Part shown: positions 5,697 through 46,532 of the stretch, in pieces
Layout of the letters: every line of letters begins with the position of its first letter
Numbering within the stretch: position 1 is the first letter of the stretch
NCBI GenBank assembly: GCA_032718475.1
Contig: JAUCBJ010008923.1
Coordinates: forward strand, 1 to 48,519
Reading direction: 5' to 3'
Source of the DNA: Nemertoderma westbladi
Taxonomy: Eukaryota; Animalia; Xenacoelomorpha
Length of the DNA: 48,519 nt
Notes under the pieces: model-generated
Databases searched by the model: none
What the model was told of the DNA's origin: nothing
What the model saw: only the letters and a program-made list of their open reading frames with translations
Position numbers and translations under genes: made by a program

Positions 5697-5840
5697 TGAT
5701 GAATTATTTCACTATAAGATAGCATTTGTAGTTTAACTTTAACGTAAAAACTTTCGAAAATCCGACGCATTTTGATTAAGTTACAGTAATGTAATATTGC
5801 CTATTCATATTTGTACACATAAGGCCCCTAGTTACTCTCG

Positions 5841-5904
5841 TGGCGTAGTGGTCAGATGGTTAAGGCGTTGGTTACATTACAGATAGTTTACGTGTTCGAA
5901 TCCC
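5841..5904 (+). promoter_or_regulatory. tRNA-like Pol III internal promoter (A box + B box) in the LTR
   Basis: A box TGGCGTAGTGG (5841-5851) and B box GTTCGAATCC (5894-5903); both recognisable in all three LTRs. Confidence 0.6.
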
Positions 5905-5989
5905 GGTCGGGAAATTTGTATTTTGGGACCATTTATTTTCATTTGGTGCAAATTGGTGGACCAATGAGACGCGTACAACGTATCGAATT

Positions 5990-6250
5990 ATGAGCCAGGC
6001 CAATCATAGGGCATAGAATATCTTATTGCTCAAATGTGAGGCTATGGAAAATTCTGTTAGGATTCCGTGTCCCAGATTAGTGTAAGGGCCGGTTTGCATT
6101 GAACGATGAGCTGGGCCAATCATAGGGCATAGAGCATCTCATTGCTCAAATGTGAAGCTGTGGAAAATTCTGTTTGGTTTCCATGTACGATTTTAGTATA
6201 TAAGGATTGGTTTGCCTTCGGTTATCACCTTCACCTTCACCTTCACTTCT
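5990..6250 (+). promoter_or_regulatory. LTR U3 Pol II promoter: duplicated ~116-bp CCAAT-containing unit, TATA box, pyrimidine-rich initiator
   Basis: Two copies of ATGAGC.GGCCAATCATAGGGCATAG...GGAAAATTCTGTT (5990, 6106); TATATAAG at ~6197 followed ~30 nt later by TCACCTTCAC repeats. The TATA word is degenerate in copy 2. Confidence 0.6.
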
Positions 6251-6560
6251 ACTTGTTAACCTAGTACACCTTACTTATATTAGTTTATTTTGTTTCTTGT
6301 TGAAACTTTGGTAAATCTGCTTGATAATCTTTGCTCGAATCTAAACTGTAAATATACTGCAAACTCCTGAACATGTTTACTTTTGGTCCAACCTTGGGAC
6401 AGCCAAACATCGGGAAGATGGCAGCCTAGACAGTTAGGCCGTTAGCAACGCAGGAAAGGGATGTCCACAACACGCTAGCGCCCACATAAGTTTGACCGCA
6501 CACCCCCTTCGCCCTTCGAAATACTCCGACTTGCCATGCAGCGCCTGCTTTATGAGGAAG

Positions 6561-6740
6561 GTAAGACTTTGTTCGACGCCCTTGCCCGACGTAAGACCTA
6601 TAGATCAGGGTAAGCGTGATGCCGTCCTGGGACGCCGCAAAATTTAGGATCAAATAATTATATTCCAGGCAGAAACCCCCCCCCCCCCCCCCTTTTCTTG
6701 TCAGCCCTGCAAATCCCTGGGTTACCTGTGTACCTCACAG
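6561..6740 (+). other. Predicted small spliceosomal intron inside the LTR
   Basis: Donor AAG|GTAAGA at 6561 (alternatives at 6591 and 6610), poly-C/pyrimidine tract 6676-6700, acceptor TACCTCACAG|G at 6740; donor and acceptor conserved in all three LTRs. Confidence 0.5.
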
Positions 6741-8049
6741 GTGCGAGCAATTGCCGTTCGTCAGTATGCAAGTACATATTAGGTACGGACAGCATACGTT
6801 CCATAATTTAGTGATTTGTTAGTACTGACTGTTTGGTACCGGTTCGCTTTGTGAACATACATTAGTACCCCCCCCCCCCCCCCCCCCCTCCTACCTGGAG
6901 TTAGTTATTTGATCAGGCAAGGAGTATTTCTGCTACCGGCACACCGCTTGGCCTAGGGAGGTTTTATTAATATCCTACCGCGCCTTGCCACGTACTGATA
7001 GGTATTTGCTGCTAACTACCGCAGCAACAAAGTTCAAGAATCAAATTTGTATACCACATCAGCTAACGTACGGTAGCAATTAACCCCTATTTCTTATCTT
7101 ACAACCAGAATCTGGTATTTGTGCCGATCACGGGTGTAGTTACTAACGCCGTGGTTGCCCAGTTGAGTTGTGGATAGGAAGGAGAGAGCTTTGACGTCAT
7201 TTGTGAGTATAAAGTTCTACAAACGCGACGAGTTTATTTTAGTAGCTAGCGCACGGTATTATTTCAGTCACAGAAAATCACTAAAACCTAGTGAAATGAT
7301 ATACACCAAAATTGTTTTATTTGTAACACACCCACACACACGCGCCCTAAAACATATTTACCCTTAGAGAGAGTTCCTACTAGGTAGCGCACTTTAGATT
7401 TTAGGCAGAATTTATCTGTATTCGTAGAATTAGGATCTGATATTTAGTTACGGCAAGGGAGTATTTCATTATTTTGTTATTAAACTGTTGTTTTCAGCTC
7501 AGCAGTATTGTCACGTTAGGCACGACCCTTTTAGACTGATTTCGTACAGGGGGATCAGTTATTGTTACATTAGGCACGACCTTTTTTAGGCTGATTCAGA
7601 CAGGGAGATCAGTATTGTTACGCTAGGGCTGTAACCCACCTAGCTTGTATATAAACCATATAAATCACACCGCGGCAAGTTACGGTATTTTAGGGCTGTC
7701 AGCGATAGTTAGGATTCGCTGCGCGGGGATTGTTTTCCCGTGAGTTTGGTCTGTTACTGTAACTGTACATCTGCCATACCGGTTAGAGGACAGGTATCCT
7801 TTTGTCTAGTTTGTAGGCATTAGACCCGCTCACGTACATAGAATAGACACTATTGTATCTGTTTGTTTAGATATCCTGGACTGGGATTTGTTGTCAGATA
7901 CTGTACGAGCCCGTTTCATTACTAGAGTCTCATAGTAAGATACATCGTTACTAGGATCTGGTAAGCGGTATACTACTGGACATATTCTATAGCTTCTTAT
8001 TAGTAGATTTGTAGGCCGTAGGGTAGTCCCTACCGTAGGGGACACCACA

Positions 8050-8059
8050 GTGAGGTATA
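8050..8059 (+). promoter_or_regulatory. Non-tRNA primer-binding site candidate GTGAGGTATA
   Basis: Directly follows the LTR-terminal CA; lacks TGG; reverse complement of LTR-internal TATACCTCAC (24240-24249; 6729-6738 with one G.U pair). Confidence 0.6.
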
Positions 8060-8898: not shown

Positions 8899-11800
8899 AT
8901 GAGTGACACACCACATTCGACGCGATACCCCCCTATCGACTATGACTCGTGCGACCCGGACAGATTGACAGTAGACGAACCGAGAAGGAGAACCCGAGAT
9001 TCCACCGATGTCACACCGTGTGCGTCGCCGGTACCCCGAACGGAAATACCGGAAGCCGCAGTGCGTGGCCACGGCAGAATCGAAGATTTCCTTACCGTCC
9101 CGCAGACTAGATCGTGGGAACCGGACATGGTAAGTTCGAATGGAAGCCAGGAGAACGTTATTAGAAGTATAGGAGGACACATGGCCCAGATTACTCAAAA
9201 CCTCGGAGAAGGTTTTTGCATTTTACGCGAGTTAACCACCGCGATGTTGAGATACGAGTTCTATACCTTACAGGTGAGGATAGAAAGTACGGTACATGCT
9301 TCCGTAGATGAACTTAAAGGTTTACACGAACTTGCAGAGTTGCGTGGCGACAACTTTACTCAGGTAAAGATAATAGATAAGTTAGTAAGTGCAAGAGAAA
9401 GTATTGTTCAGTTTAAGTCAGTAATAAGATTGGCTCAACAGGAGCAGTTTGACCAAATGCTAGGTGAGTCAGTTTCAGACGCGTTGTTACAACCCGAAGA
9501 GGAAGAAGAACTATACTGCCTGGACGGGAGGTTAGGGACGCTCACCAATTTTCTTCGTAGATGCGGCATACCGATCGAAGAACCGGAAGTCGAACCGCGA
9601 GGGACGACGGAAGTTCTCACTACGGAAGGCTTGCGAGCCTACCATATTCCACCCATGGATAGATCGTTCGTTAGCATGCGGAGTGACGCTGGCGACGTTA
9701 GTAGAACAGCATCTGTTATTACTCGACAACAACAGGAAGTTGCACGCCGACAACAAGTTGCCGAGGAAGAAGCGCAATGACAGATGGCACAGATCGCTAT
9801 CGAGGGAGAGAGACAACGTAGAGAAGACGAAGCAAGAATTGCGCAACTCAAAGCGCAAGCCGAATTTGAGGCTTCGGAGATGCGTAGATTGGAGGAAGAC
9901 TTAGCGCGAGAAGCAGCCGCGGCAGCAGCAACCGACGAGTTAGCACGACGGGTAGCAACTGACGAGTTAACACGAGTTGCAGCAGCTGACGAGTTAGCAC
10001 GGCAGAAGGCGGCCTCTGACGCACATGCTCAGTTGGAGGCACGGCAATTAAAATCATGTTTAGCCATACAGGAAGCAGAACTAGCGGCACAACAACAAGT
10101 AGCGGATCGACGCGAAAGGGAGATGCAGCTACAGTTCGAATTTAATTGTAGATCGCGTGAGGCAGCGAACGCGCAAGAGGACCTCAAACTCGACGCGAGA
10201 GATAGATCTATAAGATCCCGAGCCGGACATGACTTGTCTGCTCTGAATCGTTTCGAAGCTCGATATCGCGGAATTCAGAAGCGTATCGAGGAAGGAAGTG
10301 TGGGAGCGATAGATAGAGGAGAGGAGTTCGTCGAGGATTACTGTAAACGTTTTCCCCAAGTTATTCCTATGCTTAAACCCACGACTCCGATAAAACCGGT
10401 CTTTGTCACGAAACCTAAGGAAATAACGCCCGTGCGCTCGACGCAAGGTAACAGGTTTGTTGTGACAGAAATACCGCAACCTAGGGCAACTTCATCGCCA
10501 ATTTTAGCAGGTAACATAACTAGTCCACCTACAGTAAGTTGTAGTCTACTTGTAGGAAGGGAGGAACCTGCATTTATGTCAATTAAAAAGCAAAGTAAGC
10601 AGTTAAACCTGTGACGTGCTGTGCGAACCCAGTTATTTATAGACCGACTACGAAACCCGATTACTTTACTCAACCTTTGACACAATGTTAGACGCGACCT
10701 ACGACTTCGTGGAAGGCTTGCGAGCCTACCGAACAACGGAGGAGGACGGATGTGGGTAGTACCCACAGGATCGAACCATGTTTAACGAGACCTACGACTT
10801 TGTGGAAGGCTTGTGAGCCTACCGAACGACGGAGAACCGTAGATCCCAGAACGCAACGAATGCGACCAAGAATAATACACCGTACGCGAACCCGCCAACC
10901 ACCTTATCCGGACGACAGCGACTCATCTAGTGACTCGGAGTCGACAGAACGGGAAGTATTCCATACTGGAGCGGCAGCAGCGGCGACGGATTGCAAATGA
11001 GAGGAACGATCGACGAACCAATTCGTCAACAACCCACCACGAGAAACACCCATTCGGAAACCCACGTTGCGACCAGCGGAAACGATCCGCACCAAACAGT
11101 TCACCGAGATGACGGACCGACTAGCTCAACTCGAAGAACTACTTGAAGCGCAACCGTCGGACCGATCACGAACCAGCATGGAGTTGGAACAACCTAGACA
11201 ACATCAACCACCAAGGAGAGAACAGGAGACTAGACAGACTCCGACCCATCGAGAAGAAGATCCCGTTAATAATTCCTACCGACGAACAACGTGCGGAAGG
11301 GAACGACTAGACGACGCTACCGAACAGGGACGCGGACAGTTGGATTTGGTTAGCAAGATTGCGAAATTCGCGGCTAGACTCGGATTACCGGCACAGCAAC
11401 TGCCGAAGTTCTCTGGCAACGCGAAACACTGGCGTACACTGGTAGACTACATCGAGCCCCAGATCGCTAAGTGTGCTTTCACCTCGATGGAGAAGTTTAA
11501 TTACTTGCTCCAAGTCCTGTCTGGTGAGCCAAAACGATTAGCGGAAACCTTTATCGGTGTTCCAGATGCCTTTGAGTTGGCGTACGACCGTTTGTATTCG
11601 ATTTACGGCGGTGACGTGGCCATGGCTAAATCCATTATAGAAGACCTCTGCAGAGGAGGCAATATTTCGAAACCGATCGACCTTTTACGACTCGCGGACG
11701 AAATAAAGAACGCTATAGGGACTTTACGGTCCATAGGACAACTCGAATACGCTAACGCACCGACAGTTCTCATTAGGATAATCGGTCGACTTCACCATCG

Positions 11801-12341
11801 ACTCCGACGAGAATGGCGACGCATCGAGTACCGGCGTGAAGAAGCCGGCGGGCTTTTGAAACTCACCGACGTCTACCAACTGATTTCACGGGAGGCCGTG
11901 ATTGAGACTCGATCGAACTATACCGAACACCATATCGCGGCAGAAGGGATAGCTATTTCTGCACCGACTCGGACCAAACCATTTCTGACGAACGCAAAAG
12001 CCGTTACCTACGCCACCCCTACTGAGACTTCTAAAGTTCTGACGCCTATCGGCACCACACAGCCACAACAACAGTTGCCAGCGGACTTTGTGGGATGCTT
12101 GTACTGTAAGCAGAACGGCAGAAACTATAGCGGACATAAACTTTGTGGGTGTTGTGCTTTTAAGGAGTTAGGAATCGAAGAGCAGAGACTCCAGATTCGA
12201 TCGTTAGATTCCTGCTGGAGATGTATGAAGCCAGGACACGTCCGGAAGGATTGCCCGAGCGACGATACATGTCCTCAGTATGGACGTAACCACGACGCGT
12301 TACTCCACACAACGAGTCATACTCCGACCAAACGCTTTTGA
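8899..12341 (+). pseudogene. gag: BEL/Pao Gag region (coiled-coil N-terminus, DUF1759-like core, three Cys/His knuckles), disrupted
   Basis: LPKFSGNAKHW...EKFNYLLQVLSGEP...AYDRLYSIYG; CLYC..H..C, CWRCMKPGHVRKDC, CPQYGRNHDALLH; in-frame stops at 9778 and 10612 and a frameshift before 11067. Confidence 0.92.
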
Positions 12342-15300
12342 CGAGAGTATCCAGATAAAGCGGCTAGATGCGACGCGCTTTACAAGGAGCGTGCGCCGCG
12401 CGAGATTCATACTTTCTACGTGGATTGTATGGATCAATCGGGATCATCGGACGAGGACGAGGAGGAAGACGACACATTTTATGTGCATGCGGGTGAGGAA
12501 CAGCCATCGATAACGCTCCTCACACAGAACCAATTGAAAGGGTTTAGCGTGATTTCTATAAAGATTACCGGAACCCGAGGGAGCAAGCGTATATACGCTA
12601 TCTTAGACTCTGCGTCATCGCATAGTTATGTTGACGAACAAGTAGCCGACGTAGTTACGGACATGAGTCAAGGTAAGACTGCTCAGTATACTGTAAGCAG
12701 CATGCATGGTAAGAGAGTGATTCCTGTGACTAGAGTAAAACTAACCTTAGACACTCTTCTTTCCAAAGCGGAACACAGCAAGGACGAGCACTCATTACTT
12801 CCGGTAATAAATTTGACCTTTGCAGCTACGAAGGACTTTAGTAACTTGCTTGGCCCTGTGCCAGAGCAATCACCGGAAGATCGTAAGTATTTCCGACACC
12901 TTGGAATACCGGAATGTCCTGTCAATTATCGTTCAATTGCGATGTTAATTGGGACAGACCAGTTTAACTTACATCAGGTATGGGAGACACGCCCATCTGT
13001 TATTACAGCGGGCAACCCCTAAGCATGTAGAACTCCCATAGGTTGGTATACTAGAGCACCAATACGTTCACTAAAGGTAAGTGACCAGGAGGACGACGTT
13101 TTGAGTACGTGTAGTTTATTGACTAACACGATTGATAATTCTCCTTCACACTCCTGTGGTCCAATTGTACAGACGGCATTATGACAGACTTGCGTCGCTA
13201 ACGCAGACACCACCGATACTGACGTAACTGATCTGGACACGACCACACGGACCTCTATCTTACAACTACTTGCAGTAAACCAGGTTGTATTGACTACTGA
13301 AGACCAAAGGGTTGTTGCTGTGGATGACTCGATGCACGAGGGTTTTGGAAGGCTTGCGAGCCTACCGTAAAATCCGAAGGTCATTGACCCCACCCATCAG
13401 GCTTCGACACCGGTCGTTGATATTGGAAGGCTTGCGAGCCTACCGACAGATCAAGAGGTTGTCAAACCGCCGCACGACGATTCGACGCCGACTAGTGACA
13501 CTGGAAGGCTTGCGAGCCTACCAGACATATTGACACTAGCCACCGCAGTGGACGAAGACGTGGACGAGGACCATGGCGCAGTGCAAGCAGCGCTTGACTG
13601 ACTGCTGACTGAACGGACCATCAATGGTTGGACCGCTATGTCAGGACAGGAAAAACGGTCATTAAATATTATGAGAGATACCATTCACCAGACCGCGAAT
13701 GGCCACTACGAGGTTGGCATGTTGTGGCGCAATGGACAACCTAAGCTAGTTAACAATTACCCGCTTGCTTTGAGGCGACTCAAATCAATAAGGCAGCGAT
13801 TGTTGCGAGACGAGACGGCCCATATGCAATACAATGCACAACTTCAGACGTATCTCCAAAAGGGATACGCCATTAGGATGTTAAATCCCGAGGTAACCAC
13901 AGATTAGACATATTACCTGCCACATCATTTTGTTCGACACCCGGACAAACCTGGCAAGGTGCGTGTAGTCAACGACTGTGCCACGCTTTACCAAGGAATG
14001 TCTATGAACAGCGAACTGATGGACGGGCCGAATATTAATAACTACCTCATGGGAGTCCTAATGCGTTTTAGACAACGCAAAGTGGCTTTCACCTGTGACG
14101 TAGAGGCCATGTTTCACCAGGTTAAGGCTTTGGAGCGGGACAGGGACAGCTTGAGGTTTCTTTGGTATCTGGACGGAAATTTAGAACTTCCGCCAGAAAC
14201 TTACCAAATGCAGGTAAGAGTTTTCGGAGCCAGGGACAGCCCCAACTGCACCATGTACGCCTTAAAGCAGACCGCATTAGACAGACAAGACCAATTTGAC
14301 CCAGAAGTAGTTCGGACTGTGGAACGAGATTTCTACATGGATGATGGCCTCAAGAGTTGTGACGCCTTGGAGCGCGCTACAACTGTAGCCCACCAACTCC
14401 AGGATTGTCTCGCTGAGGGCGGATTTCACCTGACGAAGTTTGCTTCTAACGAACCCGAACTGGGGAACTCATTTGACCCGATGGATCGTAGTGGAGGTGA
14501 CCTAGACTTAGACCTAGAACCTCTACCGACGACCAAAGTATTAGGACTTAGTTGGGACCCTAACACCGACAATTTTAGGGTACGTGTAAGGTCCAACGAC
14601 CAGATTAGACATCTCACTAAGAGGACTTGCTTATCGACCATGAGTCGATTGTATGACCCATTGTGTTTCATTAGTCCAGTGATCCTACATGCTAGGATCA
14701 TACTCTGCAGCATTTGGCAAGCCGGTCTGGAATGGGACGATCCCATCCCAGAAAAGTTAGCTGAGCAATGGAAGGACTGAGAAGCCCAACTGACGTTCCT
14801 ACAAGACTATACCATACCAAGGGTATACTTTCCTTTGCAGACCACCTTTCCTGCCGATTTAGAGCTTCACAGCTTTAGTGACGCTAGCAAGGATGGATTG
14901 GGGGTTACATTATACCTTAGACGACAAGTGACATCGGACAGCTACGATGTATCTCTCGTTACTTCTAGGGCTAGAACAATGCCGTTGAAGTATATGACTG
15001 TACCTCGTGGAGAACTGCAAGCCGGGACGATATCCACCGATATTGTCAGTCTAGTTCAACGCGAGCTGTAGGCTAACTTGAAGGTCACATATTGGACGGA
15101 TGCGACGTTGGTACTTTGGTACATAAACAACGAAGCGTTTGAGTTCAAGACTTTCGTAGCCAACAGATGGGCTGAAATCTTGCTCAAACAAGATTGGCGT
15201 CACTGTCCAGGGAAGCTGAACCCAGCTGACATCGCGTCACGGGGAATACAACCGCTTGACTTTTGTAAACCGGACAATAAATCCTTTTGGTTTAGAGGAT

Positions 15301-17755
15301 CCGATTTCCTACAGCGACCATCAGACAAAGGCCACTGTTATTCGACGTGACAACCAATACCATACCAGAGGGTGCCGAGATAAAAATCGACAAGGTTGTC
15401 AAATCAAAAGCGAAAGCCAACGCCAAGGTCAAGAGGAAACAAGGACGGACGAAATCTGATGACCTGGACGCTAGACCTGACATTACGCCAGACGTCTCAC
15501 CAGAATCTCGACCAGACGCTTGTACGAATCTTTCACCGGATGTTCCGCGGGAGATTTCACCAGACGTTTCTCCTGATTGTTCACCAGATTACTCGCCAGA
15601 TTCACCAGAAGCGACACCAGATTGTTCTCCGGATTGTTTGCCAGATTGTTTTATGGAACTCTCGACAGATTGTCTACTGGACGTCTCACCAGACTTTCCA
15701 CCAGACATCTCGACAGACTGTCCACCAGATTTTAGACCAGACTTTAGACCAGACTTTCTGACAGAAATTACGCTAGACACCTTTTGGGACCGACGACAGG
15801 ACATTTCGCCGGATGTTCCGCGCTATGTCTCACTAGACGTCTCACCAGACTGTTCACCAGACGTTTCACCAGACTGTCTACTAGACACTCCATTAGAAGA
15901 CCCATTGGAGCGGACTTTTAGAAATTTACCAAATTTGACTTCTTTGGACGACAAAGGTGTGGCCACAGCGATCACACTTCGCTCAAAGAAAGTACTTGAC
16001 TTACCACATACAGGTAAATGTTTGACTAAGGTTAGGAAAATTACAGGCTCACAGGAACACACTAACACTGTAGAGTTGACACCGTTACTGCCAGTCGACT
16101 CACTAGGAGCAGACGGTAAAGGTAAGACCGTGGAGATTGACATACTTGGGGACTCAGACAACCCTACCGGAAGGCCCGTGGGCCTACCAAGTCCAGACAA
16201 GTATCCACACTACGACTATACCTTACCTGATGACGTCACTAACACTTACGTTGACCGGATAGTAAACCTAACTAGATCATGGACTGACGCGTGCCGCAAG
16301 TTAGCATGGCTCAAACGTTTGAGACAATATGCCAGAGGCAAACGCGACTTTCCTAGAAGACTTACCTTAGAGGAAGTTGACCATTGTGAAGTTGATATCA
16401 TTCTCCATTATCAATTGCGATATTTCGCACGAGAATTCACAGCGATCAAACAAGGTAAACAGATCAAGTCTTCACCGATTTTGAGTTGGAGTCCGATTAT
16501 TTATCGGGGCTTACTTTGTCACAAGTCCAGACTCCAGAACATCAACTTTGCACTTGACTTCAGGTATCCTATCATCATACCGCAACACCATGAGTTACAG
16601 CGCGCTATGATACTGGACGCACATGTACAACTCAAACACGTGGGTAGACATCACTGTTTGTCACATTTACGATCGAGGTTTGTACTGATTAGGCCTAGCA
16701 AGGCACTGAGTTTGGTAACACGGAACTGTATGATTTGTAAGAAGGTGCATGCGAGGATAGGACACCAAGAAATGAGTGAACTACCACTAGCAAGATTACA
16801 GGCATTTAGACCCCCTTTCACTGAGACAGGGATAGACTGTTTTGGACCTATAATCGCGAAACGCGGAAGGGTACAGGTAAAACGTTGGGGATTGATCTTC
16901 ACTTGCATGGCCTGCAGAGCTGTCCATATAGAGCGTGTGACAGATTTGACCACCAATGCCTTTATCCTAGCCTTACGGCAATTTATCGCTAGACGTGGAT
17001 TGGTCAAATCCATTTATTGCGACCAAGGGACAAACTTTGTGGGTGCACGGAACGAAATAACCAGAGCTTTAAAGAAATTGGACCAAAACCAGATTTCCGA
17101 GGAACTACGTCCTCACCGTATTGTTTGTAATTTTAATACTCCAGACAGTCCGTGGAGAGGCGGAGTTTGGGAAAGGCTGATTGGCTCAATCAAGACAGCC
17201 ATGGCAAAAGTAATCCCAACGCAACACATATTGACAGACGACCAACTGTCGACGTTACTAATAGAAATCGAAGCGACTTTGAACACTAGACCAATCGCTT
17301 TGAACCCAGACAATAACGACGTACAGTTTGCCTTGACACCAGCGCACCTGCTTATGCAGGCGCCAATGACATTGTTGCCCATTTCGGTACCCGTTAATAG
17401 CGACGGATACGGCAACAAGGCTTGGAAAATCACTCAACTATTAGCAAATAAATTCTGGGAAATATGGCAGAAATATTATTTGCCCTCTATTTCATCCAGA
17501 ACAAATTGGTATCATAATACCCGATGTTTGAGACGTGGTGACCACGTTTTATTGGCTGAAGACAATCTGAAAAGACGGTTTTGGCTGACCGGAGTCATTT
17601 TGACCACACACCCTACATCTGGTGTAATAAGGACAGTTACTGTACGGACTATCGACGGACGTACCGTAGATAGGCCTGTACAACGTCTCGTACTCCTAGA
17701 GGAGACTAGAAACGAGACAGGAGACTACAAATCTCCACCCAATATTAGTAAATAA
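12342..17755 (+). pseudogene. pol: BEL/Pao Pol region: aspartic protease, RT, RNase H, integrase, DUF5641-like C-terminus, disrupted
   Basis: AILDSAS protease; YLPHH, DVEAMFHQV, FYMDD (RT); FSDAS, PRGEL, WTDA, NPADIASRG (RNase H); HHCC, GIDCFGP, DQGT, GVWE (integrase); FWEIWQKYYL. Same frame as late Gag until a frameshift near 15340; several stops. Confidence 0.95.
15475..15885 (+). repeat. In-frame 12-bp minisatellite encoding (S/R)PD(C/V/F) repeats between RNase H and integrase
   Basis: Degenerate TCACCAGACTGT units; protein PDVSPDCSPDYSPD... Confidence 0.85.
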
Positions 17756-18477
17756 GATGTGGTACCCTTGATGGCCACCACATAGACTTACCATATTTTA
17801 GTCATTTTGTATTACTGTATGTGCATTTGTAATCCTCTTCACTGTAGATAGAGACAGCGGTGGAATTCCATGTCTTTATATGTGAACATGGAGGGTAGTA
17901 CCCTTATGTATCACATAGGAGCGGGATTGTGTGTGTACAGTAGGAATGGAATTCTACTTAGAACCCACAATTGAGACAATTTTTCAAAAATTATTAGACA
18001 AATCCATTCAGTTGGATTTAAATTTAAGAAAAATGATTCTCCAGTGAATACGAATTCTAGAATACAGCTAGATAAAAATTAAAATTGGGGAGGACAAGAG
18101 CGGATGGAAGGCTTGCAAGCCTACCGATAAATTTTTTTTGGAAAACAAAATCGGCCTTGTTCTACGTAGTCGTGTCTACTATTATTTAGACCAAATTAAT
18201 TCTCGACTGCATTATTTTCTTAGGAATGTAGTTTGGGAAATTAAAAGGTGAGTATTTTAGACTCGCGGCTAGTTTACCCGGAATTCGTTTTTTATCGGCA
18301 CAATTTTTTGGATTAGGAGCCAGTGCGAAATCACACAAACCCGAAGTCATTAGGCAAATGGGTTGGGGTTTTAGAGCAAAGTTGAGCCAAAAGCTGACAA
18401 ACTCTAAGTCACCTCACATCTAACCTCTATTTTGTGCTTCATCTAGTAGCAACGTAACGATATGTAACCATATATAT

Positions 18478-19167
18478 GTGTATACGATGGCGGAGAAGAT
18501 GAATAAGGAGTTACGTCAAGAGTTTACGCAGGAACAAGAGGCGCCATTCAATCGTTATGGAGCTAAAAACTTTAGTGTGTTTGGAGTGGAGAGTATGGCC
18601 AGAAGTACGGCCAAGCTCGCTAAATCCAAGGCGGACCCGAATGTTACGCGACAGCGGTTGGACGTGTATAACAAAAGAACGGAGGAGATACGCGCAGAGT
18701 TTAATGCGTTATATCCCTACGATGCATTATGCGATGCTAGTGACATTTGCGAGGATCCAGACACCGAGATGCGCCGATTGTATCATACGCTGCAATACTT
18801 GACGGTAGATGAACCCTTACCTGCAGCCAGGGATGAATTCGAAGGAATGTATCTTTATAGACACGCTCGTGGAGTGGATCCAGAGACAAAGGACGCGTTT
18901 TCCATATACATACTGTTTTACAAATGTGGAGCATGTATGCGTGAGCAAGATAACGCGATTCCTATGAGATTGAACTCGGAGAACCCCGAGCCAATATTAG
19001 CGCGATGCTCATACCACCAAAGTCTGCGTTACCAAGAAGGCGGATACCCTTTGACGAATCCGTACCATTTGTTTAAAATGAGTGGACCGAACGCGGGTGA
19101 GATCGTTATTAACGAACCCAGATTAGTCGAAACCAGACGTCTACAGCATGGTAGTGGACGAGTCTAA
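18478..19167 (+). CDS. BEL 3' accessory ORF A, unknown function (CxxC...CxxH possible Zn site)
   Basis: 229-aa open frame downstream of integrase; YKCGAC...RCSYH; overlaps the next ORF. Confidence 0.6.
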   Translation: MYTMAEKMNKELRQEFTQEQEAPFNRYGAKNFSVFGVESMARSTAKLAKSKADPNVTRQRLDVYNKRTEEIRAEFNALYPYDALCDASDICEDPDTEMRRLYHTLQYLTVDEPLPAARDEFEGMYLYRHARGVDPETKDAFSIYILFYKCGACMREQDNAIPMRLNSENPEPILARCSYHQSLRYQEGGYPLTNPYHLFKMSGPNAGEIVINEPRLVETRRLQHGSGRV

Positions 19168-20710
19168 TAAGTCGACACGAGAGAAACGGGAAGCTCTGAG
19201 CCTCTACAGGGCGTACAAGGCGTACGAGAAAGGCGAGATCGAGGAGTTTGGCGGAAGGCTCGCGAGCCTACCATTCTATTGGATATCCCACGATCAAACC
19301 AAACCTAAGGAGATGACACCCGAGCTCCTCGATAGTATCACCTTTGCTCAGCGTTTGTTGCAGAGACTACAGATACCTCATGTCGAGATGACGCGAGAAC
19401 CTCAGCCCCATTCTGCTGGAGCGATAGTACCGGTTGCGAGACCAACTAACTTTCCTATTAGTATACCGACCCGGAAGGAGACAACTTACGAGATTCCTAT
19501 AGTTGAACACCCGGAGATCATTTCGAACCTGGATTTCCTCCCATCGGTTACCTTCGGTGATGTGTTAGAGTCAGCCGAGTTACGTAAAACAATAGTTCAA
19601 AAAATCGTACGCAACGTGCCTCCACACATTACGGACTTTAAGGAAGTGGATCGAGTGGGGACGGATATCGCACCTTGCATCTTACGAGGATATCTGACTA
19701 GAACGATTCGATTATGGATCGGAGTTGGAACGTTTGAGACCGACACCAATATCGCGACCAATTGGACTGGTAAACCTATTAGTTTTGATGATGAAAAGTC
19801 AATTGGGAGAATTTGGAACCCTACCGACGATTTACTCGACGATTGGGATGTGACTAGCCGATCTCTAAAGGAGAATTGTTATATGTTTTACGACAATGAA
19901 GGAGGAAGCCATGAGCAAAGCCTCACTTCGAAAACTATACAGATTAGAGCACCAGACGGCGTGTTACATGTCTTCAGCCGACATAGGAGTGATAGAAAGA
20001 TGCCTATGCCGGAAGGAACGACGCAAAGACACGCGATGATAAAACGGATAGTTAAATCCATGGACCTGGCTTGTAGCATAGAAGCTAGGATGTTGCCAAA
20101 GGCCGTGCGAGACGTTGTGTTAGACAAGAGCATCGTCAAGATCGGATCCGGTGTACGGGATGACCTTATTAGCGATTTTGCGGGAATTGTCACGGAAGAG
20201 GATCAATTGCCTACGCCATACGTGGATACTAGACCATTGTTGCTTTGAGCTATTGAGCAAGGATATTTTAGGGAGTATAACACGCTAAAAACTGGGATGG
20301 GTTATATCTCATATCTAATGTTTAGTTGGGATTATAAGGAGAGTAAGAGGAGCAAGTACACGGACGTATACGGAGAGGGAGATACCCCCGGCGTAAACGA
20401 GTTCGAGTCACAGTTGAAGTGGCGAGGTTGCGTGTATTGGGCGATTAATTCACCTCCACGAATAATCTTGCAATACTATTTAGCGATAGAATCTTCGGTC
20501 AACGTTTGTTTCATCGCCGACGTAGTATCTAGAACCCTAAAGCGACATCCGTTATGTCTCGGTGAAGAACACACCTTTTACGATGGAGGAAGGACGCATA
20601 CTGATGTATTCCGACGATTTCTCCAACCCTTTTATAACACCGATGCGCACTGCAAAGTTTTCACGCGAGCGTTTTCAGGGACGTCTATCTCACTCACGCG
20701 GGAATCCTAG
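19148..20710 (+). pseudogene. BEL 3' accessory ORF B: WRN/EXD-like DEDDy 3'-5' exonuclease (one in-frame TGA at 20246)
   Basis: ExoI MFYDNEG...TIQI; ExoII LPKAVRDVVLDKSIVKIGSGVRDD; YVDTRPL...KTGMGYIS; ExoIII-like W...QYYLAIE. ORFs 19148 and 20297 are in the same frame. Confidence 0.75.
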
Positions 20711-20724
20711 TCGACAGACCATCG

Positions 20725-21441
20725 ATGTTAACGTTAGTACCGTATGACGGGGAACGCCACGCGGAATTCAAAGGCCCGGAAGGATCCTGGAAGGCTCGCG
20801 AGCCTACCGCCCATCACTACGATGTGGATCCGGCCGAGTTTGCGATGATAGACGAACCGTTGCAGCAACTCATAGAGATAGAGGAGAACCTTCCGAGGAA
20901 GACGCGAACTGAGATACGCGAGTTGGAGAAAAGCGATGCCATGGTTTGTGTACAACCTACGGAGACGAACATACCGACTGACCCGGATGATGAGAATTAT
21001 CACGTGGACGGTAGCGCTCGCCCCATCGGAGATCTCATCTATGAGCGAGTTTGGTACCCTGCCAACACTATTTGTGGCAGATGCGGGGCAACTGGCCACC
21101 ACGCAAAGAAATGCGGAGCGAAGCACATATCTCTACTGGACTTGGTATGTAACTGGTGCGGGGATCAACGTTCACACACTTTCTACACTTGCTGGCGTTT
21201 TGTGGCGCAGTGCACGTATTGTAATATTAAGGGCCATAGGGCATCCGAATGTCAACTTAAAGACGTCCTCTATGAGCACATGTCAGTTAAAATCGTTCGA
21301 CAGCTATTGGGAGGATCTAGCAGACGAGCATGTATCTACGCAGCGACGCCGTTTCCCTATGAGAGCACATTTGGGATTTTGGGCCGTAAACCCTCTCATA
21401 ATGTCGAAGGAAGGATACGTATCGGCTATGCCTCAGTATGA
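20725..21441 (+). CDS. BEL 3' accessory ORF C: triple CCHC zinc-knuckle protein
   Basis: CGRCGATGHHAKKC, CNWCGDQRSHTFYTC, CTYCNIKGHRASEC at 21073-21252. Confidence 0.8.
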   Translation: MLTLVPYDGERHAEFKGPEGSWKAREPTAHHYDVDPAEFAMIDEPLQQLIEIEENLPRKTRTEIRELEKSDAMVCVQPTETNIPTDPDDENYHVDGSARPIGDLIYERVWYPANTICGRCGATGHHAKKCGAKHISLLDLVCNWCGDQRSHTFYTCWRFVAQCTYCNIKGHRASECQLKDVLYEHMSVKIVRQLLGGSSRRACIYAATPFPYESTFGILGRKPSHNVEGRIRIGYASV

Positions 21442-22220
21442 TGAATTGTTGGAGGTGCTGGATATATTGCCTTTGGATAGCGGATTTATGGTTGTGCGGG
21501 ACTACTTTCTACAGGTACACCCCGACAACAAGAATACTTGGAACTTTCAAACTGTTGTGAACAAGATTACCGCCGGGGAATTCGACAAATTGCGAGTTGA
21601 ACAGCGCAATCGAGGAGCCTGGCATTCGATAGCTTGGGCATACCGGAGCGCATTTTATCACAAACGTGTAACCTCGTATATTCTAGACGAGACTGACGTT
21701 TTGTGTGAGACTGGCTTCAAGGCCACACCGTTAGCAGAAAGGACGCGTCACCCACAGGATGATTAGCAATTTCGTATACTCAAAGCCCAACAGGCCGGAC
21801 AAGAGATAAAGAAGGTAGTAAATGTTGCCGAGAGGATGACATCAAAGTCGCAAATCCGGATGACTCGGGGCACAGTTTCCCTTGCCAGAGAACCACGCGG
21901 AGGGACAGGATACGCTTTGCCGGAACCCTTTAGGATTCAAACAACGTCAGAGAGCGAGGTGTCAGCGGACGGAATAGTCCCACCATTTTGACTTCCTCCC
22001 AGCATTGTAGAGACTCGATCCGATGTTAAGTCGACGATTGGAATCGGACGAGGATTTAGAGGATTGAGCGCACGACGGATGTGCGAAACTCCCGTCGTCC
22101 CATTTCCTAGCGTTTTGGAACCACCGACAACTCGACGCCGAAGTCCAAGCCCAGTTCGACCTCGACCACCACCCAATCGCACTAGAGGATGTGGACGAGC
22201 CCGCTCATCGAAGGAATAGA
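21428..22220 (+). pseudogene. BEL 3' accessory ORF D (or frameshifted continuation of C), with Pro/Arg-rich tail
   Basis: MPQYDELLEVLD... frame reads on past stops at 21764 and ~21989 with coding-like composition. Confidence 0.4.
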
Positions 22221-22253
22221 AGCGAGAGGAAGGAAGGCTTGCGAGCCTACCGA

Positions 22254-22352
22254 TTTGGATATTTATATTCGGATATTTTATTTGGATATTATATTGGATA
22301 TTTATATTCGGATATTTTTATTTGGATATTATATTTGGATATTTATATTGGA
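22254..22352. repeat. TTGGATATTTATATT-type tandem repeat in the 3' UTR
   Basis: About seven GGATATT-cored units between two copies of the 20-nt hairpin motif. Confidence 0.8.
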
Positions 22353-22861
22353 CATTACGTTTGGACGTTGGGTTTGGAGGAGCGAGATAGAGAAGGAAGG
22401 CTTGCGAGCCTACCGTTAGCGATTAGTGCTCAGGAGAAGATATCCAGACCAGCAGGACGAACTTTTAAGATCGTCAGGAGGACACTTTAAGACTCATTTA
22501 AAGTTATTAGCGCCTTATGTTTATTTTATATTTGAACTGATTTAATTTGGTGGAAGTTTATTATGTATATTTACAATATAAAGATTTATTGCAAGAGATT
22601 GAAATTATTTGTTTGATTTGTTCTAATTTGTTTGATCTAATTTGTTTAATTTGCTTACCTTGATAACCGAAAGCCCATTTTGTATTTTATGCACTAAAGT
22701 TAATTAGTAAATTTGTATTTTGTATGTACGATGGATTGTATTTACGCCGTACCTGCGTACCTGCAATATTAAGTATGCAATAATTAGATAGTGATTATTT
22801 TATATTTTAGGCCCTACCAGTAGATTTAGAAATATTTGTAAATAGTTCGTATTTCGATTGG

Positions 22862-22896
22862 TGAAAACAGTCTTACTTACTGTTTTCATGGAGCGG
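22862..22896 (+). promoter_or_regulatory. Stem-loop plus short purine-rich PPT-like tract before the 3' LTR
   Basis: TGAAAACAGT-7nt-ACTGTTTTCA perfect 10-bp stem, then TGGAGCGG abutting TGAT. Confidence 0.55.
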
Positions 22897-23022
22897 TGAT
22901 GAATTATTTCACTATAAGATAGCATTTGTAGTGTAACTTTAATGTAAAAACTTTCGAAAATCCGACGCATTTTGATTAAGTTACAGTAATGTAATATTGC
23001 CTATTCATATTTGTACACATAA

Positions 23023-23329
23023 AGTAAAGTAAAGTAAAGTAAAGTAAAAGTAAATTTTCTTCGGCCGCTAGGCCAGGGATTATGCACAAAGTCTGACGAC
23101 TTATTTCCAGTGCGGTCCCCCCAGAACTTTACTCCCCAGAGGAAACTCCAGTACTCATTTAGCTACCACTTAAGGATGCAAGGCAGAGATGCGCCCTGGC
23201 TGGTCCCTTTAAAGCATTCGTGCCGAAACGAAAACTGCCCTGGCCCATGTGAGGATCGAACCCACGACCTATGGGAGATGTGAATTCAATGCGACCACTA
23301 CACCAAGGTGGAACCTTAGTTACGCTCCC
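23023..23329 (-). mobile_element. tRNA-derived SINE with (TTTAC)n tail
   Basis: Absent from the other two LTRs; minus strand has A box TGGTGTAGTGG and B box GGTTCGATCC; (AAAGT)n on plus strand at 23021-23054; TAA duplicated at the flanks. Confidence 0.85.
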
Positions 23330-25006
23330 TAAGGCCCCTAGTTATTCTCGTGGCAGAGTGGTCAGATGGTTAAGGCGTTGGTTACATTACAGATAGGTTA
23401 CGTGTTCGAATCCCGGTCGGGAAATTTGTATTTTGGGGCCATTTATTTTCATTTGGTGCAGATTGGTGGACCAATGAGACGCGTACAATGTATCGAACGA
23501 TGAGCCAGGCCAATCATAGGGCATAGAATATCTTATTGCTCAAATGTGAGGCTATGGAAAATTCTGTTAGGATTCCGTGTCCCAGATTAGTGTAAGGGCC
23601 GGTTTGCATTGAACGATGAGCTGGGCCAATCATAGGGCATAGAGCATCTCATTGCTCAAATGTGAAGCTGTGGAAAATTCTGTTTGGTTTCCATGTACGA
23701 TTTTAGTATATAAGGGCTGGTTTGCCTTCGGTTATCACCTTCAACTTCACCTTCACTTCTACTTGTTAACCTAGTACACCTTACTTATATTAGTTTATTT
23801 TGTTTCTTGTTGAAACTTTGGTAAATCTGCTTGATAATCTTTGCTCGAATCTAAACTGTAAATATACTGCAAACTCCTGAACATGTTTACTTTTGGTCCA
23901 ACCTTGGGACAGCCAAACATCGGGAAGATGGCAGCCTAGACAGTTAGGCCGTCAGCAACGCAGAGAAGGGATGTCCACAACATGCTAGCGCCCACATAAG
24001 TTTGACTGCACACCCCCTTCGCCCTTTGAAATACTCCAACTTGCCATGCAGCGCCCGCTTTATGAGGAAGGTAAGACTTTGTTCGACGCCCTTGCCCGAC
24101 GTAAGACCTATAGATCAGGGTAAGCGTGATGCCGTCCTGGGACGCCGCAAAATTTAGGATCAAATAATTATATTCCAGGCAGAAACCCCCCCCCCCCCCC
24201 CCCTTTTCTTGTCAGCCCTGCAAATCCCTGGGTTACCTGTATACCTCACAGGTGCGAGCTATTGCCGTTCGTCAGTACGCAAGTACATATTAGGTACGGA
24301 CAGCATACGTTCCATAATTTAGTGATTTGTTAGTACTGACTGTTTGGTACCGGTTCGCTTTGTGAACATACATTAGTACCCCCCCCCCCCCCCCCCCCCT
24401 CCTACCTGGAGTTAGTTATTTGATCAGGCAAGGAGTATTTCTGCTACCGGCACACCGCTTGGCCTAGGGAGGTTTTATTAATATCCTACCGCGCCTTGCC
24501 ATGTACTGATAGGTATTTGCTGCTAACTACCGCAGCAACAAAGTTCTAGAATCAAATTTGTATACCAGATCAGCTAACGTACGGTAGCAATTAACCCCTA
24601 TTTCTTATCTTACAACCAGAATCTGGTATTTGTGCCGATCACGGGTGTAGTTACTAACACTGTGGTTGCCCGGTTGAGTTGTGGATAGGAAGGAGAGAGC
24701 TTTGACGTCATTTGTAAGTATAAAGTTCTACAAACGCGACTAGTTTATTTTAGTAGCTAGCGCACGGTATTATTTCAGTCAGAAAATCACTAAAACCTAG
24801 TAAAATGATATACACCAAAATTGTTTTATTTGTAACACACCCACACACACACGCCCTAAAACATATTTACCCTTAGAGTTCCTACTAGATAGCGCACTTT
24901 AGATTTTAGGCAGAATTTATCTGTATTCGTAGAATTAGGATCTGATATTTAGTTACGGCAACGGCAAGGGAGTATTTCATTATTTTGTTATTAAACTGTT
25001 GTTTTC

Positions 25007-25879
25007 TACCGTGGCTCATTGCGGCCACATTTGAATTTTTCTTTTTTTTTTTAAAAAAAAAAGTACACCTAATTATTCAGACAAATATTTAGCTGTACTT
25101 TTTTTTTCTTCAAAAAAAAAAAAAATACACCTAATTATTCAGACAAATATTTAGCTGTACTTTTTTTTTCTTCAAAAAAAAAAAAATACACCTAATTATT
25201 CTGACAAATAATTTGGAGTATTTCTTTTTTTCTTTCTAAAAAAAAATACTCCTAATTAATTAATATATGTTATTGGAGGGAATTTTAAACAGGTACCTGT
25301 GGATAGCATGACCGGTACCCGGTACGAACGGTAGGGTACTCTGCTCTGCTGCTACTACTGTACTACTGCTACTACAGTACTACACTTCAGCACTTAGGCA
25401 GCTTAGCCTAAGCACGTCAGAACTGCGAAATGGCGTCAGATTCTGACGATTTTGATACTGTTGGACCTAATCCTAGTAGAAAGAGGAAACTACTCGCTGA
25501 TGTAAGACGTGATTGTTATCTTCAAATAAACAAGCTATATCAAATCTGAAATCTGCCAGGTTGAACAGCCTGATGATGATGCTGATATGCATACCGCTAC
25601 CGGTAGGCCTAACCTTATTGGCATTCCGACGCGACCGACTTCTGCCGGGAATCGATGCCGGGATACTCCAAATTATTTGTCAGAATAATTAGATGTATTT
25701 TTTTTTAGATAAAAAAAAAAGAAATATATACTCCAAATTATTTGTCAGAATAATTAGGTGTATTTTATTTTTTTTGAAGAAAAAAAAAGTACAGCTAAAT
25801 ATTTGTCTGAATAATTAGGTGTACTTTTTTTTTTAGAAAAAAAAGAAAAATTCAAATGTGGCCGCAATCAGCCACGGTA
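25007..25879. mobile_element. MITE / internally deleted DNA transposon with long structured TIRs
   Basis: TACCGTGGCT(C/G)ATTGCGGCCACATTTGAATTTTTC TIRs, mirrored ~59-bp subterminal repeats, duplication GTTTTC (25001-25006, 25880-25885); empty site in the 5' LTR near 7490. Confidence 0.92.
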
Positions 25880-26502
25880 GTTTTCTGCTCAGCAGTATTG
25901 TTGCGTTAGGCACGACCCTTTTAGACTGATTTCGTACAGGGGGATCAGTTATTGTTACATTAGGCACGACCTTTTTTAGGCTGATTCAGATAGGGAGATC
26001 AGTATTGTTACGCTAGGGCTGTAACCCACCTAGCTCGTATATAATATAAACCATATAAATCACACCGCGGCAAGTTACGGTATTTTAGGACTGTCAGCGA
26101 TAGTTAGGATTCGCTGCGCGGGGATTGTTTTCCCGTGAGTTTGGTCTGTTACTGTAAATACTGTTACTGTTACTGCCATACCGGTTAGAGGACAGGTATC
26201 CTTTTGTCTAGTTCGTAGGCATTAGACCCGCTCACGTTCATAGAATAGACACCAGGCTCTGCTCCTCGCCAGTAGTAGTTTTGTGTATTGTATCTGTTTG
26301 TTTAGATATCCTGGACTGGGATTTGTTGTCAGATACTGTACGAGCCCGTTTCATTACTAGAGTCTCATAGTAAGATACATCGTTACTAGGATCTGGTAAG
26401 CGGTATACTACTGGACCCTACGGTTAGAGATATTCTATTGCTTCTTATTAGTAGATTTGTAGGCCGTAGGGTAGTCCCTACCGTAGGGGACACCACAACA
26501 TT

Positions 26503-42329: not shown

Positions 42330-42417
42330 AAGGTTAAAATTAAACATTATTATTTTTTCAATCAATCAATCGGTAGTTAGGGAAAACTAACCTCGTTTGA
42401 ATAAGCATGACTCTCAC

Positions 42418-44251: not shown

Positions 44252-46532
44252 TGATGAATTATTTCACTATAAGGTAGCATTTGTAGTTTAACTTTAACGT
44301 AAAAACTTTTGAAAATCCGACGTATTTTGATTAAGTTACAGTAATGTAATATGCCTATTCATATTTGTACACATAAAACCCTTAGGTACTCTCGTGGCGT
44401 AGTGGTCAGATGGTTAAGGCGTTGGTTACATTACGTAGGTTACGAGTTCGAATCCCAGTTGGGAAATTTGTATTTTGGGGCCATTTATTTTCGTGTGGTG
44501 CTAATTGGTAGGCCAATGAGAAGCGTACAGCGTAGCGAATGATGAGCCAGGCCAATCATAGGGCATAAATTATCTTATTGCTCAAATGTGAGGCAGTGGA
44601 AAATTCTGTTAGGATTCCATGTCCCAGATTAGTGTAAGGGCCGGACTGCGTTGAACGATGAGCTGGGCCAATCATAGAGCACGAAGCACTTCATTGCTCA
44701 ATGGTGAAGCTGTGGAAAATTCTGTTTAGTTTCCATGTGCAATTTCTAGTAAAAAAAGGCCGGTTTGCCTTCGGTTATCACCTCAGTACCAAACCTTATA
44801 CTTCGTTACCCCTTTTCTCCACCTTATAGTTTATTCTTGTAAAATTAGTTAATTCGGTTTCTTGTTGAAACTTTATTTGATAAATCCTTTTGTAAAACTG
44901 TAAATATACTGCAATTTCCTGACATGTTTTCTTTTGGTCCGACTTCGGGACAGCCGAACACCAGGGAGATGGCAGCCTAGATCGTTAGGCCGTAAGCAAC
45001 GCAGGGAAGGGATGTCCACAACACGCTAGCGCCCACATCGGATTGACCGCGCACCCCCTTTGCCCTTCGAAATACTCCACTTGCTATGCAGCGCCCGCTT
45101 TGTGAGAAGGTAAGACTTTGTTCGACGCCCTTGCCCGCCGTAAGACCTATAGATCAGGGTAAGCGTGACATCGTACTGGACGCCGCAAATTTAGGATCAA
45201 ATAATTATATCCAGACAAACCCCCCCCTTTGTCAAGTCCTACGAACCCCTGGGTTAACCTGTACTTCCTACAGGTGCGAACTATTGCCATTCGTCAGTAC
45301 GCGAGTACACATTAGGTACGGACAGCATACGTTCCATAATTTAGTGATTCATAGCACTGACTGTTTGGTACCGGCTCGCTTTGTAGAACGTACATTAGTA
45401 CCCCCCCCCCCCCCCCTGTCTGGAGTTAGCTATTTGATCAGGCAAGGAGCATTTCTGCTACCGGCACACTGCTTGGCCTAGGGAGGTTTATTAATATCCT
45501 ACCGCGCCTTGCCACGTACTGATAGGTATTGCTGCTAACTACCGCAGCAACAAAGTTCTAGAATTAAATTAGTATACCAGATCAGCTAACGTACGGTAGC
45601 GATTAACCCCTATTCTTATCTTACAACCAGAATCTGGTATTAGTGCCGATCACGGGTGTAGTTACTAACACTGTGGTTGCCCATTGGGTTGTGGATAGGA
45701 AGGAGAGAGCTTTGACGTCATTCGTGAGTATAAAGTTCTACAAACGCGACTAGTTTATTTTAGTAGCTAGCGCACGGTATCATTTAGTCAGAAAATCACT
45801 AAAACCTAGTAAAAGGAATTACACGAAATTGTTTTATTTGTAACACACCCACACACACACGCCCTAAAACATATTGCCCTTAAAGTTCTACTAGCTATAG
45901 CGTACTATACATTACTTTAGGTGGAAATTATCTGTATTTGTAAAATTAGGATCTGATTTAGTTGCGGCGATAAGGAGTATTTCACTTTCGTTATTAAACT
46001 GTTGTTTGTCTGGACAACGGTATTGTTACATTTAGGCCTGACCCTTTAGACTGATTTCGTACAGGGGGATCAGTTATTGTTACATTTAGGTACGACCCCT
46101 TTTCGACTGATTTAGGACTGTCAGTGTTGTTACGCTAGGTCTGTTAACCCACTAGCTCGTATATAAACCATATAAATCACACCGCGGCAAGTTACTGTAT
46201 TTAGGACTGTCAGTGATAGTTAGGATTCGCTGCGCGGGGATTGTTTTCCCGTGAGTTTGGTCTGTTACTGTAACTGTACATCTGCCTCACCGGTTAGAGG
46301 ACAGGTATCCTTCTGTCTAGTACGTAGGCATTCGACCCGCTCACGTACATAGAATAGATACAAGGCTCTGTTCCTCGCCAGTAGTCGTTTGTGTACTATA
46401 TCTGTTTGTTTAGATATCCTGGACTGGGATTTGTTGTCAGATACTGTACAAGCCCGTATACATTACTAGAGTCTCATAGTAAGATACATCGTTACTAGGA
46501 CCTGGTAAGCGGTATACTACTGGACCCTTACA
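44252..46532 (+). repeat. 5' LTR of copy 2 (3' end inferred at ...CCTTACA)
   Basis: Homology to the copy 1 LTR stops here at a CA; the partner LTR is outside the window, so the end is not confirmed. Confidence 0.7.

Follow-up and report, generated by a model that had tools for sequence, protein, structure and literature searches.

The host element and the placement of the motif

The stretch analysed here, contig JAUCBJ010008923.1 of Nemertoderma westbladi, is a window of 48,519 nt (48.5 kb) that holds two copies of a long terminal repeat (LTR) retrotransposon with a recurrent 20-nt near-palindromic motif, GGAAGGCYYGYRRGCCTACC. A pattern scan returned 13 exact matches in the window, every one on the + strand and precisely at the coordinates given by an earlier sequence-only reading, 48156 in the second element copy included, and the mean number of matches over 100 dinucleotide shuffles of the window was 0.00.

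To judge from its domains, the motif-bearing element is a BEL/Pao LTR retrotransposon of ~20 kb with an inner region of 14.8 kb and extra 3' open reading frames (ORFs). Pfam domains follow each other in the order DUF1759, CCHC knuckle, reverse transcriptase (RT), Peptidase_A17, Integrase_H2C2 and DUF5641, a protein search returned 559 BEL-type polyproteins at E<=0.001, and the nearest integrase relatives are 32-41% identical. The element is bounded by a 5' LTR (5697..8049, + strand, 2353 bp with TG...CA ends) and a 3' LTR (22897..26497, + strand) that differs from it by ~2% substitutions and two later insertions, and the target-site duplication ACATT stands at 5692-5696 and 26498-26502. The further features of the element also lie on the + strand. 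An N-terminal gag-side ORF (8899..10614) without a Pfam match contains one in-frame stop and, judged by eye, a stretch that resembles a coiled coil. It is followed by a frame for the gag core (DUF1759, CCHC knuckle), a protease region assigned by position and by eye, RT and the Peptidase_A17 region (10692..15350, 9 internal stops), and by the integrase frame (15296..17755), in which a lineage-specific linker with 12-bp repeats precedes Integrase_H2C2, the core and DUF5641. Nine internal stops interrupt the gag-RT frame and the frame changes ahead of the integrase, so this full copy is dead. Downstream lie the accessory ORFs A (18487..19167, 226 aa), B (19127..20710, one internal stop) and C (20638..21441, with CCHC zinc knuckles). 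A second, more diverged copy of the family (44252..48519, + strand, 86-93% identity) ends at the window edge.

Twelve motif copies belong to the full element, all on the + strand (loops as predicted below). The first, at 9624..9643 (UGCG), lies in an EGLRAY frame, and the copies at 10711..10730 (UGCG) and 10804..10823 (UGUG), which are units of a 93-bp duplication, both read WKACEPT. Three copies with a 78-bp period, at 13347..13366, 13425..13444 and 13503..13522 (each UGCG, GRLASLP), occupy the lineage-specific linker that separates the protease region from RT, and the copy at 16169..16188 (CGUG, GRPVGLP), in which the closing pair U-A is replaced by C-G, lies just upstream of the integrase homology. 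Further downstream, 18106..18125 (UGCA) is non-coding, between pol and the accessory ORFs, 19253..19272 (CGCG, GRLASLP) and 20789..20808 (CGCG, WKAREPT) fall in the N-terminal parts of ORF B and ORF C, and 22232..22251 and 22395..22414 (both UGCG) lie in a probable 3' untranslated region, the latter ~480 bp upstream of the 3' LTR. The single copy of the second element, 48156..48175 (+ strand, CGCG, EGSRAY), is at the place corresponding to 9624. Reading frames thus hold 9 of the 12 copies of the full element, 18106 being intergenic and 22232 and 22395 being downstream of the last accessory frame, as read from the sequence. The translations EGLRAY, GRLASLP and WKA(C/R)EPT proposed earlier, and the use of all three frames, were borne out, and GRPVGLP and EGSRAY came in addition; as stops and frame changes interrupt this element copy, the assignments at 10711, 10804 and 20789 are less secure. 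In the part that could be compared with 120 BEL homologues (10692-17752), each of the six gag-pol copies stands where only 0-7 of the homologues align, so that the gag-pol copies there appear confined to lineage-specific linkers; the frame holding 9624 lies outside this comparison.

No copy was found in any of the three LTRs, as had been claimed, nor in the 5' untranslated region or the ~23 kb outside both element copies. The 12 copies form 8 clusters, of which three are local duplications (periods of 93, 78/78 and 163 nt). Gaps between clusters are ~1.1-2.7 kb, with a coefficient of variation of 0.40 over nine gaps. This spacing is more even than expected by chance (P 0.006 under a uniform null, 0.0007 with conserved domains excluded), the P value being indicative only since the clusters were drawn post hoc. 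Such even spacing suggests that the function requires the whole element length to be covered, and is not that of a local site.

The accessory ORFs gave few leads. For ORF A no family was found, and beyond the zinc knuckles the three ORFs show no DNA-binding family. The C-terminal half of ORF B is DEDDy-like by eye only: residues encoded at 19850-20560 contain by-eye ExoI/II/III-like motifs that resemble those of DEDDy 3'-5' exonucleases of the WRN/EXD2/RNase D type, a candidate identity confirmed by no search. Pfam, PHROGs, NCBIfam, the sequences of the PDB and a phmmer search of 1.84 billion proteins gave it no support, the sole match in the last search being a repeat protein that we judged spurious. 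An atlas search with the first part of ORF B returned no usable match, there was no close relative among 2459 candidates, and single-sequence folds were unusable (pLDDT 32 for ORF B, 36 for ORF A).

The transcript of the element would measure roughly 17 kb, corresponding to the inner region plus one LTR length. A splice donor consensus lies just upstream of the first ATG (8835-8843) and is doubled in the second copy at 47283 and 47359, and the segment 18210-18252 shows by eye an acceptor-like end near 18222, then a donor at 18246. Spliced RNAs, which would carry only the last 4 motif copies, may be the source of accessory ORF expression. After the 5' LTR (8050-8075) there is no ordinary TGG-type primer-binding site; a short hairpin is present at ~8028-8043 in the LTR end, and the second copy lacks a matching U5/leader junction. 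Each of the three LTRs has a tRNA-like stretch (5835-5915, ~23345-23425 and ~44390-44465) in which words resembling an A box and a B box can be seen by eye; it is possibly a captured tRNA-derived Pol III promoter, and ARAGORN and Rfam called nothing there. The two insertions in the 3' LTR resemble a short interspersed element whose minus strand shows, by eye, a B-box-like word (~23023-23329), and a miniature inverted-repeat transposable element with long inverted ends built of 62-bp repeats (~25007-25873). In the integrase frame, the linker at 15460-15910 between the Peptidase_A17 region and the integrase is a 12-bp repeat array with an S/P/D-rich peptide, aligned by none of the 120 homologues. 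A protein search for close relatives of a linker region of the element gave 1 distant BEL match among 7995 scored.

Seven public sequencing runs were listed, of which 5 (from 4 studies) contain part of the stretch, with no RNA run among them. Two runs have contigs in all 30 bins of the element (17573 and 8270 contigs), and this cover suggests a much-repeated family, the depth there being no copy number. Contigs of two runs join across 19043-22089 (depth 1685 in run X3), which marks a common family derivative without ORFs B and C and without two of the motif copies. Elsewhere in the window, an unbroken 963-codon endonuclease-RT frame of a long interspersed element (28478-31369) lies beside a DDE_Tnp_1_7 (piggyBac-like) fragment (27211-28443). 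An AT-rich block covers 36155-44263, in which 37775-41806 (one stop) resembles by eye a Polinton-type protein-primed family B DNA polymerase; three frames of the block were scanned with no Pfam match at E 0.05. Together with animal names among the protein matches, these LINE, DNA-transposon and Polinton-like neighbours suggest an animal host.

Conservation of the motif against its flanks

The motif has sharp limits. Its 7-nt arms, GGAAGGC and GCCTACC, are invariant in all 13 copies, and in the 48.5 kb they are found inside the 13 motifs only; 15 of the 20 columns are invariant, among them A3 and A18. The centres are TTGCGA (7 copies), TCGCGA (3), TTGTGA, TTGCAA and CCGTGG (1 each). A purine follows directly 3' of the motif in 13 of 13 copies, and otherwise the flanks have nothing in common. 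When up to 3 mismatches were allowed, the only extra matches were minus-strand readings of the same 13 sites, as expected from a near-palindrome. The notion that the motif is always sense holds for its asymmetric letters (A3, A18 and the centre), which point one way throughout, and needs to be qualified in that minus-strand matches exist through the near-palindrome. No further 20-mer within 6 mismatches of the motif was found on either strand of the window, so that no decayed copies have been left out of the count. The 8-10-mers of the inner region include no other motif family dispersed in this way, and hairpins that share the motif's shape but are unrelated to it number only 3 on the + strand.

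The duplicated units provide the clearest measure of constraint. In the 78-bp triplet (13347/13425/13503) each 25-base flank is identical at 5-15 of 25 positions and the motif at 20 of 20; in the pair 22232/22395 the flanks are identical at 8/25 and 8/25, and the motif again at 20/20. For the 93-bp pair (10711/10804) the values are 21 and 14 of 25 for the flanks and 19/20 for the motif; this duplication appears younger than the other duplicated units. Since the motif is kept at 20/20 while the flanks of duplicated units have decayed, the constraint acts on nucleotides. This agrees with what had been proposed from the sequence alone, as do the three frames, the invariant arms and the matching place in the second copy, where 48156 corresponds to 9624 and the motif position has thus been kept between element copies.

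Within the family at large, contigs covering 13300-13570 point in the same direction with less force. Only 1 of 17 variable places lies within the 60 motif bases (P 0.076 over the whole stretch), and of the 11 variable places with a share of >=10% none does (P 0.060). The single variant in the motif affects the last C of one copy at a share of 1-2% and still permits G.U pairing. Run X4 yielded no contigs for 13300-13570. This variant depletion across family contigs is suggestive only. A P of 0.025 obtained for a 216-bp interior window was post hoc and is not relied on, and the finding that among 40 of 1681 variable places none is in the motif is uninformative since the motif makes up 1.6% of the bases. 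In run X3, two contig loose ends start exactly at motif edges (among 12 of 35 loose ends), which we read as diverged contigs that keep the motif and lose likeness beside it.

These data also bear on the proposal that the 20-mer is functionless or selfish, having spread by template switching, been kept uniform by gene conversion and survived in tolerant linkers. In its favour, an insertion that is tolerated would be expected in linkers, the copies are direct repeats throughout, and the family-wide depletion of variants is borderline. However, the same sharp boundaries recur in 8 unrelated contexts with no pattern of target duplication, there are no decayed copies within 6 mismatches, identity is 20/20 inside decayed duplications, and neutral spread fits neither the even spacing nor the lack of copies in the 2.35-kb LTRs and in the ~23 kb of DNA outside the elements. 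We regard it as very improbable. A mini-insertion with target duplication was likewise rejected, the flanks showing no consistent duplication.

Beyond the window, exact matches occur at 4 viral and 73 metagenome loci, one per locus. None of these 77 loci has a second copy within 1 mismatch or BEL similarity (blastn/tblastn), and the two commonest centres of the element are found in only 2 of them; we read the viral and metagenome matches as chance. In the viral contigs there was no related locus. The motif peptides occur in 0 of 120 BEL polyproteins from other hosts, three apparent matches having been an artefact of '*' in the search pattern. The motif therefore looks family-specific. The pattern of same orientation, tandem duplication and family specificity holds in the window and against the 120 homologous proteins, which is its scope. 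We found no description of such a motif, nor of any BEL/Pao cis-signal, in the literature on BEL/Pao or other LTR retrotransposons covered by our search, which did not extend to subscription journals and Repbase reports.

Predicted fold and candidate functions

The sequence-only reading had drawn a stem with a 2-nt loop. Folding predictions correct this to 2 bp, an A.A mismatch, 5 bp and a tetraloop, with an energy of -7.6 kcal/mol. On the + strand the loops are UGCG (7), CGCG (3), UGUG, CGUG and UGCA (1 each), with G as the second loop base in 13 of 13 copies. Loops of the YNMG/YNUG type, classes as defined in PMC5633025, account for 12/13 copies on the + strand versus 4/13 on the minus strand. 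The five isolated copies have a local hairpin probability of 0.5-1.0 at a span of 150-300 nt. The variants had been described as keeping the stem: the arms and the A.A mismatch are indeed invariant, but a true compensatory change is found in one copy only, at 16169, where both sides of the closing pair are changed (U-A to C-G) in the sole double change among the copies. Rfam gave 0 matches at the gathering score in the window, and its 5 weak matches in 5697-22900 (E 2.6-6.3) cover no motif copy. A likeness to the histone stem-loop was rejected, since the stem of the motif is shorter, its loop is different and there is no Rfam match.

Tentatively, and with somewhat less than even confidence, we favour the reading that the 20-mer acts as an RNA docking signal, dispersed along the element and addressed to a zinc-knuckle protein that the element itself encodes, and serves to compact and package a long RNA. 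On the genomic RNA each motif would fold into the small hairpin predicted above, with G as the second base of its tetraloop. The zinc knuckles of Gag or ORF C would bind such hairpins at many points along the RNA, and this multipoint binding would compact the unusually long RNA and package it selectively. A switch from hairpin to duplex could add dimer contacts, as for Ty1 PAL1/PAL2 and MLV (murine leukemia virus) DIS-1/DIS-2. CCHC knuckles are encoded in both Gag (within 11001-12341) and ORF C (within 20725-21441) by Pfam, the MLV knuckle binds an exposed G (PMC7599994), and dispersed signals with a spacing requirement are known from RNA viruses (PMC6281560). We infer that RNA rather than DNA is read, and likewise the binding partner and the purpose of packaging.

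Several observations weigh against this docking signal. Covariation is not significant, as 145 of 500 shuffles reach it, and every loop variant is a transition at a CpG site, which plain mutation could produce. The hairpin energy is equal on both strands for 4 of 5 variants, the fifth being slightly stabler on minus. In three clusters copy-to-copy pairing is favoured over the all-hairpin fold by 4.5-9.8 kcal/mol. Invariant stems with a variable centre are the reverse of the usual loop-read packaging signal and resemble a dimeric DNA-binding site, and no copy lies in the 5' leader, the site of the Ty1 and MLV signals. The family-wide variant depletion is borderline and comes from one 271-bp stretch. 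Finally, 0 changes in 168 arm bases since insertion are unremarkable at the LTR-LTR rate (P 0.17), but unusual at the rate at which that stretch of the copy differs from the family majority (7/211, P 0.003).

The multivalent RNA signal proposed from the sequence alone therefore stands in part. The + strand loops favour a signal that would act at the RNA level, but there is just one compensatory pair, not significant, and arrays in one orientation are typical of VANC-type DNA sites as well. The main alternative is accordingly a DNA site, inverted half-sites GGWAGGC round a 6-bp spacer, through which a protein of ORF A, B or C or of the host would prevent silencing in a VANC-like manner. Invariant arms with a variable centre of fixed length suit such a site, same-orientation arrays are typical of VANC anti-silencing (PMC5735166), the element carries accessory ORFs of no assigned role, and even spacing would fit a spreading chromatin state. 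We nevertheless consider it unlikely. VANC motifs are 8-9 bp long and mainly non-coding, whereas 9 of the 12 copies here are in reading frames, and none is in an LTR or the leader, where a promoter-protecting site would be expected. A homodimer should tolerate both forms of W in each half-site, but A3 and A18 are constant in 13 of 13 copies, and the single change at the innermost arm-adjacent pair hits both sides together. Nor do the accessory ORFs offer a DNA-binding family besides zinc knuckles.

The whole 20-mer is self-complementary on the + strand with G.U pairs, which brings in protein-free sticky ends, that is, copies that would pair within one packaged genome or across both, so as to zip or condense the RNA and hold the two templates in register for reverse transcription. 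A duplex of two motifs is predicted at -30.7 kcal/mol versus -15.2 for two hairpins (2 x -7.6), all 15 pairings among the five variants are stable (-19.8 to -34.9 kcal/mol), and the commonest variant pairs better on + than on minus (-30.7 versus -22.9). Invariant stems would follow if every copy had to remain compatible with the others, pairing between neighbouring copies is predicted, and precedents exist in the extended duplex of Ty1 PAL1-PAL2 (PMC6844567) and in MLV DIS-1/DIS-2 (PMC7599994). Any hairpin-forming sequence gives such a duplex in silico, however. Recognition accounts more easily for the fixed A.A mismatch, which comes at a price in pairing energy, and the changed copy at 16169 forms a more stable hairpin of its own (-9.6) but pairs less strongly with the majority form (-24.6 versus -30.7 for the majority with itself). 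Sticky ends as the sole function appear decidedly improbable.

The structural evidence for the docking signal would equally serve an RNA signal addressed to a host machine (export, motor-driven localisation or protection from silencing), or one for which the exonuclease-like ORF B would act as RNA-binding adaptor. A coding-region stem-loop of the I-factor is bound by Egl-BicD, whose exonuclease-homology domain contacts that RNA without catalysis (PMC13186709); DEDDy ORFs occur in rotifer LTR elements (PMC5408684). On the other hand, Egl signals are bent stem-loops with 3' bulges, which the short symmetric hairpin is not predicted to be, and the exonuclease identity of ORF B was seen by eye only, with nothing found in searches. 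The motif peptides are absent from all 120 BEL homologues, and because the motif is family-specific, a cognate reader encoded by the element fits better than a host machine. We therefore hold this explanation to be quite unlikely.

A bolder version of the docking signal combines it with pairing. Here the motif would be a module with two states: as a hairpin it would be recognised by a cognate accessory protein, and as a universal sticky end it would let any copy pair with any other, the two together forming a multivalent whole-genome code for RNA compaction and self-recognition. As a code this seems somewhat unlikely to us. It would be embedded in three frames at intervals of ~1-2.7 kb, would enable packaging of a retroelement RNA of ~17 kb, and would be unlike the single 5' packaging or dimer site of retroviruses and Ty1.

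For LTR retrotransposons outside yeast, little is known about how RNA is selected and folded, and an invariant, family-specific 20-nt motif embedded in three frames offers a small and directly testable handle. As an RNA signal it would bring retrotransposons into the range of dispersed packaging signals and hint at the handling of long RNAs by giant elements; as a DNA site it would give plant VANC anti-silencing an animal-type counterpart in a retroelement.

Comparison with known systems

The stem-loops with RGAG of hepatitis B virus and those of MS2 are reportedly dispersed packaging signals. Such systems, as treated in PMC6281560, share with the motif the many small stem-loops along a genome, a proposed reading by the particle protein and the importance of spacing, and 12 copies in 8 evenly spaced clusters were found here, the fold being predicted only. 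They are unlike it in that their common feature is a short loop motif on varied stems, whereas here 14 stem or arm bases are invariant and the loop varies. The sites MLV DIS-1/DIS-2 (PMC7599994), DIS standing for dimer initiation site, and Ty1 PAL1/PAL2 SL1 (PMC6844567) are comparable as short self-complementary hairpins convertible to an extended duplex. Those dimer sites are few and located at the 5' end, in contrast to the 12 mutually compatible copies over 13 kb and none in the leader.

At the DNA level the VANC motifs of VANDAL transposons (PMC5735166) are similar, as far as the window and the 120 homologous proteins show, in being family-specific, partly multiplied in tandem and of the same orientation in an element with accessory genes; they differ as 8-9-bp, mainly non-coding motifs of a plant DNA transposon from a 20-bp near-palindrome mostly in the frames of a retroelement. 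The element itself shares with BEL/Pao elements (Belpaoviridae) and rotifer Juno/Vesta (PMC5408684) the set and order of domains, the 5-bp target duplication and extra 3' ORFs; Juno/Vesta carry a DEDDy ORF3, and ORF B is a DEDDy candidate by eye only. It departs from these relatives in its size of ~20 kb (giant elements are treated in PMC6431247), its 2.35-kb LTRs, long linker insertions and at least 3 accessory ORFs. Because a defining feature fails in each case, loop-read variable stems in one and leader location in the other, we do not file the motif as a dispersed packaging signal or as a DIS. In its mode of action, we propose, its nearest analogues would be dispersed packaging signals or a DIS present in many copies.

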